DNA of 54,267 nucleotides, taken from a virus (Duplodnaviria > Caudoviricetes). The notes below the pieces were generated by a model, which worked only from the letters and a program-made list of their open reading frames with translations, was not told the DNA's origin and searched no databases. The DNA lies in IMG/VR virus record IMGVR_UViG_3300049893_000997, positions 1 to 54,267 of that record, one strand, 5' to 3'. The translations under genes and the position numbers were made by a program. This document shows positions 24,226 through 27,200 of this stretch, piece by piece; the first letter of the stretch is position 1; the number at the start of each line of letters is the position of its first letter.

Positions 24226-27200
24226 ATGGCTTATGATCTTTCTATGCAGATTAATTTGCAGAAACCATCACCCACCAATCTCACAGAAATTAGAAATTCT
24301 ATAGAGAAGGGACTAAAGGGCATTAATGTTGGTGCTGCAATAAGAAGTGCTACCGCCGGAAAACCAATAAAAATTCCGATTACGCCTACTGTATTTAAGA
24401 AAGACATTGATAGTATCAAGCAATCAATAGCTCTCGGTTTAGGGAAAACCCCCTTTTCCGTTGGCATAAAAGCTTCGAAGCAGGATGTAAAAACTATTAG
24501 AAGCTTTATTCAGAGTGGAATTGGCACAATACCAATAACTACAAAAATCTTCAAAAGCAATGTTACTGATATTCGTAAAACAATAATAGGTAAGATTGGT
24601 GTTGTGCCAATTACTATCAAGGTATTCAACTCCAATATTAAGCAGATTAGGCAACAAATTCAAGCTGGTTTGCAAAATATTACGGTTAGTGTTAACACTA
24701 CCGGTGCTGGAGGGGCTGGAGGCGGTAGCGGACGAGGAGGACGCGGCGGTGCTGGAGGTGCCGGAAGAGGTGGTGGCGGGGGTGGTATTGGCCGACAGGC
24801 CGCGGGCATATCACAGAGTTTAAGGGATGCTACGGATAGTGGTAATTCATTTTTTGATGCAATTACTGGCAAGGCACGTAGTTTTGCGGCATATGCTGTG
24901 GCTAGTACCGCTATTTTGAAACTTAGTGGGGCGGTTTCCAATGCAACAAACGAGGCGATTAAATATGAAAAGGAATTGATCAATATCGCACAAACTACCG
25001 GAGATTCTATAGAAAGAACCAAGTCTTTTTCTGATGCGTTAGTAGATATATCCACAAAGTACAATGTAAACCTGAGCCAAGTTGCAAAACTAACAAGAAC
25101 TCTAGCACAGGCGGGTCTTAGTTTTTCGGAAGCCTCAAAGGGTGCTGAGATTCTTGCTAGAACAAGTTTGCTCGCTGGCTTTGATAGTCTTACCAGCACA
25201 ACAGAAGGTTTAATTGCGGTAATGTCCACCTTCAATCTTACCGTGACTAGTGCGGGTAAGGTTCTTGAGTCGATCAACGCAGTATCCAAAGCATACGCGG
25301 TTGAGTCAACCGACCTTGTAGAGTCTATTAAGCGAACCGGTGGTGCATTTAGTGTTGCTGGCGGAACAGTAGAAGAACTTATTGCTTTAATTACCGCTGT
25401 ACGATCAACCACGCGAGAAAGTGCTGAAACTATTTCTACTGGTTTCAGAACAATCTTTGGTCGTTTGCAAAGACCCAAGACAATTGAATACTTTAAGAAG
25501 CTTGGTATCGAATTAGAGGACGCGGAAGGCAAGTTCATCGGACCATATCAATCAATTATTGCCATTAATAAGGGACTGGAACAGCTAGGAATTACTACTG
25601 GAACAGTAAAATTTGCAGAAGTTGTCGAACAAATTGGTGGTATTCGTCAAATTAGCAAGGTGGTTCCTCTATTAACACAGACTAAAAAAGCCCAAGAGGC
25701 TTTAAATGTAGCTAATAATGCTAGTGAGGAGAGCATTAAGGACTTGGAAAAGGCACAACAAGGTCTTGGATATAAACTTGGTACATTACAGAAAGAGTTT
25801 GCAGCATTGATTTCGGAAGTTGTAGACTCTAAAGGATTTAAGACTCTGGCCGATATCTTTATCGGTTTATCAAAATCTGTAATACAGTTCACAAGCACTC
25901 TTAAGCCACTAATGTCAGCATTAGCACCTATTATGGGTGCAGTTGCTGGTAGAGTATTAGGACAGAGTTTACAAGGCAAAGGATTTTCTGAAACTTATGG
26001 TAGTGGTAGAGCGGCGGCTCGACGTAGAAACAGAATTCAAGGCAGAATGAGTAATATTGGTGGATTGGGCGGTGCTGCTGGACCATATGCGACCTCACAG
26101 CAACAGGATGTAGCAAATTTTTATCAAAACCAACTTAATGCCATCCCCGCATCAAGAAGAGGTCGTCGCAGATACGCATCTGGTGGAACGGTTCCAGGAA
26201 GCGGTAGCGGAGATACTGTTCCGGCTATGTTAACTCCTGGCGAGTTTGTGATTAATAAGAAATCCGCACAAGCTATTGGTTATAGCAATCTTGCGAAAAT
26301 CAATAAATACGCCGATGGAGGTTTAGTCGAAGGAAAAACTACAAAAGAAGCATACTTATATCATGCATCGAATTCAGGCAAAGATAACCGAGTGATAGAA
26401 TCCTTATTAAAGGGAGGGGCAAGGTCCGATATTGCACATGGATATGGGCAAGGTTCTGGATTCTATTTATATACTAATGTACAAAAGGCATATGATCACG
26501 CTCTTGGACTATCAGACCCTACTGCACTGACGGGAGCAGAACAAGGGGGGAAACCGTTTGTCGCATGGTTTGTCGAAAAACTTACTCCAAAAAGGTGGAA
26601 TCTTGATTATGAGTATAATAGTCCATTAGTTACAAAATGGATTACAGATAATTATGATCAACTGAAACGGTATCTGGAGGGACAAAAAATTGATCATCCA
26701 GAATTTCCATCACAATTGCCAGCAATCACAGTCAAGGGAATTACGCAACAGAATAAAGGAATTTCTCTTGAGGTTGCTGATAAATCTGGAAGAACACAAC
26801 TAGATGAAGTTTTATCGAATCAATCGGGCAATGTAAAAACTGGACGATATTTAGGTCAAATTATCAGTCATTTAAGAAATAATGATCCGAATATAGTTTA
26901 TAATTTTGAAGGATGGGCTCTTGAGAATGTTGCAGAGAAAAAATTCAAAAGTGATATCAAAGGAATTAAATATGTTGGTAAAGAACCATTAAAGCCGTTT
27001 TCAATTCAAACATATGATGAAGCAAATGACTTTTGGAGGACAGTAAAAAATGATGATTGGAGTCTATCAAAATTTGCTAAAGGAGGTGCTGTTGGTACAG
27101 ACACTGTGCCCGCTATGTTAACTCCCGGCGAGTACGTTATCAATAAAAAATCCGCACAAGCTTTTGGATATGGAAATCTTGAAAAGGTGAATAGGTATGC

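Follow-up and report, generated by a model that had tools for sequence, protein, structure and literature searches.

Injected phage ADP-ribosyltransferases (ARTs) are already known from phage heads and from polyvalent ejection proteins. The precedents are T4 Alt and the ART-PolyVal family (PMC5512222) and the MuF-VIP2 fusions (PMC7302621, PMC9206674). Alt and the MuF-VIP2 proteins are packaged in the head, enter together with the DNA at a time when no phage gene is yet expressed, and belong to the R-S-E clade. ART-PolyVal, placed by Iyer et al. 2017 within the Tox-ART-HYD2 clade, has a histidine on strand 1, a tyrosine on strand 2 and an aspartate on strand 5 and lies within the H-Y-[EDQ] clade; the same authors relate Tox-ART-HYD2 to PARPs and to the cholix and diphtheria toxins (PMC5512222). 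Here we describe a domain of the H-Y type that, unlike the head-packaged enzymes, is found inside a tail tape measure protein (TMP). It is encoded in IMG/VR virus record IMGVR_UViG_3300049893_000997 (Duplodnaviria; Caudoviricetes), a virus contig with a completeness estimate of 35%; the whole stretch analysed, 54,267 nucleotides, is called the window below. A literature search, with subscription journals outside its scope, returned no report of an ART within a TMP, and the related papers concern separate genes or MuF-VIP2 head fusions. To our knowledge, the enzymes embedded in TMPs are cell-wall hydrolases (lysozyme and M23 modules). These hydrolases resemble the present case in that a globular enzyme module is inserted in the TMP, but their substrate is the cell wall and their place of action the periplasm, whereas an enzyme that depends on nicotinamide adenine dinucleotide (NAD+) would have to work in the cytoplasm.

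The 2574-aa protein that carries the domain can be classified from its sequence as a phage TMP of the TP901 type. PhageMin_Tail (PF10145) matches aa 272–454 with E 6.5e-26 in a Pfam scan, TIGR01760 matches aa 233–575 with E 6.8e-28 in an NCBIfam scan, and ten PHROG TMP families match the protein. The assignment follows from this PF10145/TIGR01760 core, from the position of the gene in the tail block, with head protease and terminase genes upstream, and from a motif resembling a C-terminal one in lambda gpH (described below). A sequence-only reading of the window had proposed that 26323–27072, which corresponds exactly to TMP aa 700–949, encodes an ART-like domain and that this domain is an injected host-takeover or anti-defence enzyme. 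The observation is confirmed by our analysis and the interpretation is partly supported. We consider it moderately probable that the domain is an ART-superfamily cargo enzyme of the TMP that would use NAD+, rely on E796 for catalysis and ADP-ribosylate a host target. Residues of the segment are numbered so that segment residue n is TMP residue n + 699, and the features of the gene and the domain are as follows.

24226..31950, + strand: TMP gene, a single open frame of 2574 aa
26335..27057, + strand: predicted ART-fold domain, aa 704–944 (envelope of the family profile), inside the interval 26323–27072
26362..26364, + strand: H713, the strand-1 His of LYH[GA][TS], which aligns with the His of ART-PolyVal YHGT
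26440..26475, + strand: strand-2 motif G-x-G-Q-G-x-G-F-Y (Q742, G745, F746, Y747), placed by conservation and by the model strand at segment 47–50; the Y747 codon is at window 26464–26466
26605..26613, + strand: D794-Y795-E796, an invariant D-x-E just after strand 4 (segment 92–94)
26614..26964, + strand: insert of ∼115 aa in the model (aa 797–913), at the usual place of the ADP-ribosylating turn-turn (ARTT)/acceptor loop
26968..26979, + strand: strand K915-Y916-V917-G918, at about the canonical position of the strand-5 catalytic Glu

The domain represents a real, previously unnamed family; chance motifs are excluded, since HMMER, run in full over 1.84 billion cluster representatives, returned 129 homologues with E ≤ 1e-3, of which 51 reach E ≤ 1e-10 and three E ≤ 1e-30. 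Each representative stands for a cluster at 50% identity, and the family thus comprises at least 129 clusters, without a model in Pfam, NCBIfam, PHROGs or PADLOC. The homologues form two groups, very large proteins of ∼1,500–6,400 aa and stand-alone proteins of ∼220–300 aa. The nearest homologue (P0002) shares 70% identity across the domain, has the same architecture and is annotated at its source as a TP901-family TMP. A family alignment of the segment and 55 solo homologues yields a profile that retrieves the full-length domain in nearly all stored matches. Searches with the single sequence were uninformative by comparison with the family: no PHROGs, NCBIfam or PADLOC model covers the domain, phmmer against PDB sequences gave chance matches only, and tblastn against 50,697 phage records, a single-protein search of viral contigs and a word-indexed search for longer proteins were all empty. 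Nothing significant was found among PDB sequences with the family profile either; the best matches were UAF30 (E 0.041) and Tpt1 (E 1.8).

Conservation across the family is concentrated in a small set of residues. It was counted over 131 non-redundant domain rows with an overall identity of 20–40%. D794 and E796 are each present in 127 of 127 rows and Y916 in 118 of 118; K915 and G918 are each kept in 115 of 118. The strand-1 histidine is nearly invariant (H713, 124/125), as are G731 (125/126), Q742 (126/127) and G745 (126/127). F746 is Phe in 113 of 127 rows, and position 747 is Tyr in 102 and Phe in 25 of the 127. The motifs named in the sequence-only reading are located where it placed them, as checked by script (AYLYHAS at aa 709–715, GYGQGSGFYLYT at aa 739–750 and KAYDHA at aa 754–759), and its remark that the segment is rich in aromatic residues holds (Phe, Trp and Tyr together make up 11.2%, against 5.2% in the remaining TMP). 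The KAYDHA helix, which it had counted as part of an NAD-binding signature, stands in part: A755 (Ala in 121 of 127 rows) and H758 (His in 103, Gln in 15 and Arg in five of 127) are conserved, and the tyrosine of the helix, Y756, is not.

The AlphaFold model built from the family alignment has a predicted local distance difference test (pLDDT) score of 87.7 and a predicted template modelling (pTM) score of 0.83. A single-sequence AlphaFold model, with a pLDDT of 36.6, was unusable and was set aside. The family-alignment model predicts the following elements.

Segment 9–17: strand 1, which holds H14 (H713)
Segment 20–31: helix
Segment 47–50: strand 2, which holds Y48 (Y747)
Segment 53–63: helix
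Segment 78–86: strand 3
Segment 92–94: strand 4, with D95-Y96-E97 (D794-Y795-E796) directly after it
Segment 98–214: insert composed of helices, a three-stranded sheet and two helices
Segments 215–217 (I-K-Y), 227–232 and 237–243: later strands

Comparison of this model with known structures consistently returns ARTs. VIA-align, run against 48,161 representative PDB chains, gave 24 matches at Z ≥ 5, and 39 of its best 50 rows are, by title, ART, PARP or PARP-like, Tpt1, DarT or Arr chains. Among them are TreX (Z 7.5, 114 aligned residues, root-mean-square deviation (rmsd) 4.0), EcPltA (Z 7.2), pertussis S1 (Z 6.9), Tpt1 (Z 6.7, 81 aligned residues, rmsd 3.2) and PARP16 (Z 6.5, 18% identity). 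Rescoring of Foldseek’s 1000 best chains placed 145 of 996 at Z ≥ 5, with all of the best 50 rows of ART type; Foldseek itself lists the Plt, pertussis, cholera and diphtheria toxins, PARP14 and tankyrase. BFVD yielded viral matches that were only weak and for the most part unnamed. An ART fold for aa ∼704–944 is well supported on the strength of the model, given the uniformity of these matches, the fact that the conserved His falls on strand 1 and the GFY on strand 2, and a profile match obtained independently (see below). The fold anticipated by the sequence-only reading is what both structure searches find.

The top PDB match in Foldseek is residues ∼1419–1611 of chain B of 9k3a, the pre-ejectosome of cyanophage A4 (E 9e-4, probability 0.98). 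VIA-align scores this chain at Z 5.0 with an rmsd of 9.4, which is too loose to serve as support. The word ADP-ribosylation does not occur in the cyanophage A4 paper, and, going by the model comparison, this podovirus ejection protein may contain an unnoticed ART-like domain.

ART-PolyVal is among the closest described families, with a link at the profile level. Aligned by hhalign with 46 solo ART-PolyVal proteins, the family alignment matches at 92.1% (E 6.2e-7, 83 columns), pairing YH[GA]T with YHGT and GFY with GFxF and extending through the following helix and strand 3. This profile-profile comparison, which the sequence-only reading had suggested as a check, bears out the N-terminal half of the domain with its His and GxGFY motifs. 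The two families have in common the ART fold, the strand-1 His and the strand-2 GF[YF], and both are carried by very large multidomain proteins that virions deliver, which for ART-PolyVal are the polyvalent proteins of phages and conjugative elements. They differ in the rest of the active site: ART-PolyVal has its strand-5 Asp within GHDGI, a strand for which hhalign found no reliable partner in the domain family, whereas the family described here has a D-x-E after strand 4, an insert of ∼115 aa and K-Y-x-G. They also differ in the carrier, which here is a TMP; the words ‘tape measure’ do not occur in the ART-PolyVal paper (PMC5512222).

In its proposed way of working the domain resembles Alt and the injected ARTs of polyvalent proteins. 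Judged by the Pfam models, it falls outside the ART-PolyVal, PARP, diphtheria-toxin, Tpt1 and R-S-E families. The ART-PolyVal model (PF18760) has no match on the segment at E ≤ 1, and at E ≤ 0.01 it covers the domain in 0 of 42 homologues. The two can occur side by side: in P0102, a polyvalent protein that is not a TMP, the domain directly follows a canonical ART-PolyVal domain, and the best ART-PolyVal stretch (aa 640–693) is upstream of the ART-fold domain (aa 841–1048). The H-Y-E families of the PARPs and diphtheria toxin (PF00644 and PF09009) have no Pfam match to the domain and resemble it in structure only (Z 4.7–6.8); Atlas leads to these families scored 0.89, under the Atlas trust level. 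The R-S-E ARTs (PF03496; Alt, VIP2 and C3), which are marked by a strand-1 Arg, S-T-S and E-x-E, have no match in this TMP, where strand 1 has a His and strand 2 GFY. PARP16, an H-Y-x mono-ART PARP, is the best PARP match (Z 6.5–6.8, 17–21% identity over 87–96 residues). Its triad is H-Y-Y; the domain likewise keeps the His and Tyr and, by the range estimate given below, has no Glu at the third triad position. PARP16 and the mono-ART PARPs differ in having no sequence-level match to the domain, and we know of no PARP counterpart for the large insert and the invariant D-x-E.

The domain is not a textbook H-Y-E enzyme, and its active site is atypical. ART chains of 113–180 residues span model positions 7–250 with only 81–116 aligned positions. 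So few aligned positions over so long a range indicate a core split by the insert, which the ART chains skip. We estimated the strand-5 position by counting back from the aligned C-terminal ends of five chains, using the literature triad positions of PARP1, PARP16, PARP10, tankyrase 1 and cholera toxin; the result is a set of ranges, not a residue-level alignment (chain range/model range: PARP1 852..1009/4..235; PARP16 140..274/2..234; PARP10 874..1008/1..235; tankyrase 1 1168..1312/1..235; cholera toxin 1..149/8..250). The canonical strand-5 position estimated in this way is at about segment 213–217, which is the conserved A/G-x-K915-Y916-V-G918 strand and not E796; the aligned ranges alone put it at about 214–217, G-I-K915-Y916. 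On either side of the ARTT loop, ARTs have two strands that run antiparallel next to each other, and D794/E796 should therefore adjoin K915/Y916 at the mouth of the NAD+ pocket. That E796 itself catalyses the reaction is a guess. The H-Y-[ED] clade to which the sequence-only reading had assigned the domain is reasonable by the link to ART-PolyVal, but the acid that would complete a textbook H-Y-E triad appears to be missing from the strand-5 place.

The domain is enclosed by two copies of an ∼50-aa motif, and a further module follows directly downstream.

26173..26334, + strand: flanking TMP motif, copy 1, aa 650–703; YASGG..DTVPAMLTPGEFVINKKSAQAIGYSNLAKINKYADGG
27073..27246, + strand: flanking TMP motif, copy 2, aa 950–1007; FAKGG..DTVPAMLTPGEYVINKKSAQAFGYGNLEKVNRYAKGG..FAEGG
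27253..28095, + strand: next module, aa 1010–1290, a candidate zincin-like metallopeptidase with HEVGH at aa 1105–1109 (27538–27552)

The consensus of the flanking motif is [FY]A.GG..DTVPAMLTPGE[FY]VINKKSAQA.GY.NL.K.N.YA.GG. A profile of 22 copies matches gp16 of 8zdo (8zdo_S, E 1.2e-8), where there are two copies, and lambda gpH (8iyk_H, residues 753–784, E 7.2e-5). Because these matches to solved TMPs are significant, we identify the flanks by sequence as a canonical TMP element duplicated around a cargo. Between one and six copies are found in 19 of the 21 stored large domain-bearing proteins, and in 16 of the 19 TMP-type proteins a copy begins no more than 40 residues after the domain. The motif seems to punctuate TMPs into cassettes; a trimer knot, a tube contact and a cleavage site are candidate roles. 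A literature search for the motif string returned nothing relevant. The motif (DTVPAMLTPGEFV...N.YA.GG) occurs one to six times in giant TMPs (L004–L021 and P0002–P0024).

The same arrangement recurs in other giant TMPs. Scans of IMG/VR and of species genomes used a seven-sequence profile and one or two peptide patterns, and their counts are lower bounds. At least 21 IMG/VR loci carry the domain: in 14 the open frame that contains it exceeds 3,200 aa and continues past the end of the locus, and in seven it is a solo gene of 232–279 aa. PhageMin_Tail is present in all seven of the giant open reading frames (ORFs) scanned and in seven of the nine scanned stored proteins longer than 1,500 aa. One giant TMP (L004) also encodes ADPrib_exo_Tox, a C3/VIP2-type R-S-E domain, which scores 27.3 bits where the cut-off is 23.4:

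L004:2047–2325: ADPrib_exo_Tox, aa 683–775 of the giant ORF, by Pfam

With a second ART clade in one tape measure, ART cargo in TMPs is not a one-off. Nine TMP-like proteins (P0003, P0004, P0006, P0007, P0010, P0011, P0016, P0017 and P0024) are 5,000–6,400 aa long. A tape measure sets length at ∼1.5 Å per residue, so that these proteins would correspond to tails not far short of a micrometre, if cargo does not account for a large share of their length. In four multidomain proteins that are not TMPs (P0083, P0085, P0102 and P0107) the domain is joined to DUF5824, DTW, ART-PolyVal or GGACT/AIG2-like domains, architectures that are polyvalent-protein-like.

These results can be combined into a proposed mechanism in which the domain is a cargo cassette held between two canonical TMP motif copies. 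H713 on strand 1 and Y747 in the strand-2 G-x-G-F-Y would most likely bind NAD+, as in H-Y-type ARTs, and ADP-ribose would be transferred to a host target, either protein or nucleic acid. E796, aided by D794, is probably the catalytic acid; it would come from the end of strand 4 and lie beside K915-Y916, where strand 5 begins. Target selection would fall to the ∼115-aa insert, in place of the ARTT/acceptor loop. In lambda, the C-terminus of gpH is at the tip and the protein is expelled before DNA flow (PMC11101478). Because a TMP leaves the particle before the DNA does, its cargo would enter the cell before any phage gene expression, as T4 Alt does from the head.

Several observations weigh against this mechanism. 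The Z values of the ART-type matches are only 5–7.8, where values below 8 are middling by the tool’s own scale, and the Foldseek TM-scores are low (0.2–0.4). No ART or other model in Pfam matches the single segment at E ≤ 1, and the C-terminal half of the domain cannot be aligned to ART-PolyVal, even by global and low-mact hhalign. Within the active site, range arithmetic places no acid at the textbook strand-5 position, which is occupied by K915/Y916, and the tyrosine at 747 gives way to Phe in part of the family. The position of the domain in the N-terminal third of the TMP is also unfavourable, as this part should exit the tail last; arrival in the cytoplasm and refolding there would both have to occur. 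Finally, there are the genomic settings of the stand-alone members. Solo copies in large phage contigs are among replication and nucleotide-metabolism genes, including those for NAD-dependent DNA ligase, a RecJ-like exonuclease, nucleotidyltransferase, deoxynucleoside monophosphate (dNMP) kinase, helicase and deoxyribonucleotidase. At least seven solo homologues were found in species-representative genomes with one peptide pattern, all of them in archaeal metagenome-assembled genomes (MAGs; L023–L029), of which three are labelled Woesearchaeota, three Methanosarcinales and one only ‘archaeon’. The archaeal neighbours include SecY, L10e, eIF2-alpha, TFIIE-alpha, TrmB, a proteasome chaperone and ribonucleotide reductase, and no partner gene is common to the four archaeal neighbourhoods scanned. 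These neighbourhoods are easier to reconcile with an activity that is non-toxic or directed at nucleic acid than with a takeover toxin. The family thus extends beyond phages, and an indiscriminate toxin is improbable; the archaeal chromosomal settings speak against the whole family being dedicated to toxicity or takeover and suggest that it has a cellular role in archaea.

The same neighbourhoods, housekeeping in the archaea and with ligase, RecJ and nucleotide genes in the phages, favour an alternative in which the domain is an active NAD+-using enzyme that acts on nucleic acid or nucleotides, in the manner of DarT, Tpt1/KptA or pierisin, and is not a protein-modifying takeover factor. Structure points the same way: Tpt1/KptA gives the tightest superpositions of all (rmsd 3.1–3.2 over 81 residues, Z 6.7–7.0), DarT chains are matched too, and LYHGT is paired with LYHaT of Tpt1 in a profile match that is weak and falls short of significance. 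However, only the C-lobe of Tpt1 (chain residues 88–180) superposes, the N-terminal RNA lobe is absent here, and a scan of the window with PF01885 is empty even at E ≤ 10. The catalytic tetrad of Tpt1 is R-H-R-R, and it is without a counterpart among the conserved columns of the domain family, which hold no conserved Arg. Phage gene neighbourhoods are, moreover, weak guides to function. We regard this alternative as possible but rather doubtful.

It is unlikely, in our estimation, that the domain has an ART-like fold but no catalytic activity and serves the TMP for binding or as part of its structure, comparable to the pseudo-PARP of TASOR, to IcmQ or to PARP13. Such pseudo-ART folds (TASOR, PARP13, IcmQ and AvrPphF) are among the VIA-align matches, and the apparent replacement of the strand-5 acid by K915/Y916 is what a dead fold might show. 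Yet an active-site-like set (H, Q, D-x-E and K-Y) is retained over ∼127 rows at 20–40% identity, and the existence of solo proteins outside TMPs means that the role of the domain is not tied to tail structure. The idea that the motifs look like those of an ART by coincidence and lie in a coiled-coil part of the TMP that is not a domain, for which we found no support beyond the empty library searches with the single segment, has next to no probability and is refuted by the 129 homologues, the confident model, the consistent ART-fold matches and the significant profile match.

If the cargo-enzyme mechanism is correct, the TMP would be a delivery route for cytoplasmic effectors, which would raise the question of how a globular domain travels through the tail tube and refolds in the cell. 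The family would also add an ART lineage with an unusual layout (H, Y/F, a D-x-E before the insert and K-Y after it) that is shared by phages and archaeal MAGs. A wider proposal, which we hold to be less likely than not, is that a clade of large uncultivated phages uses its giant TMPs (2,500–6,400 aa) as polyvalent effector carriers. Here, gpH-like repeats would bound cassettes of cytoplasm-acting enzymes, among them the new ART family, whose catalytic acid would be relocated and whose insert would choose the target, and, in one relative, a VIP2-type ART. Release of the cargo could be the task of the HExxH peptidase-like modules, ADP-ribosylation of proteins or nucleic acids of the host would precede all phage transcription, and the same ART family would also have a cellular role in DPANN-type archaea.

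The module that follows the second flanking motif bears on cargo release in such a scheme. T[VL]xHExGH modules downstream of the ART-fold domain are also present in P0002, P0009, P0019, P0020 and P0024. The HEVGH module of the window has no Pfam or PDB sequence match, and Atlas offers a weak lead to LPD23 only; that it is a peptidase that frees the cargo is speculation.

Further along the TMP there is a hydrophobic stretch:

29419..29673, + strand: glycine-zipper-like hydrophobic stretch, aa 1732–1816, partial match to NF053611 (E 1.7e-5)

The NF053611 match is far under the curated cut-off of that model; the stretch could be the membrane-inserting part of the protein. The window also codes for a glycosyltransferase, a sigma-factor-like protein and a nucleotide-sugar epimerase (50979–53244 on the − strand and 2341–3498 on the + strand).

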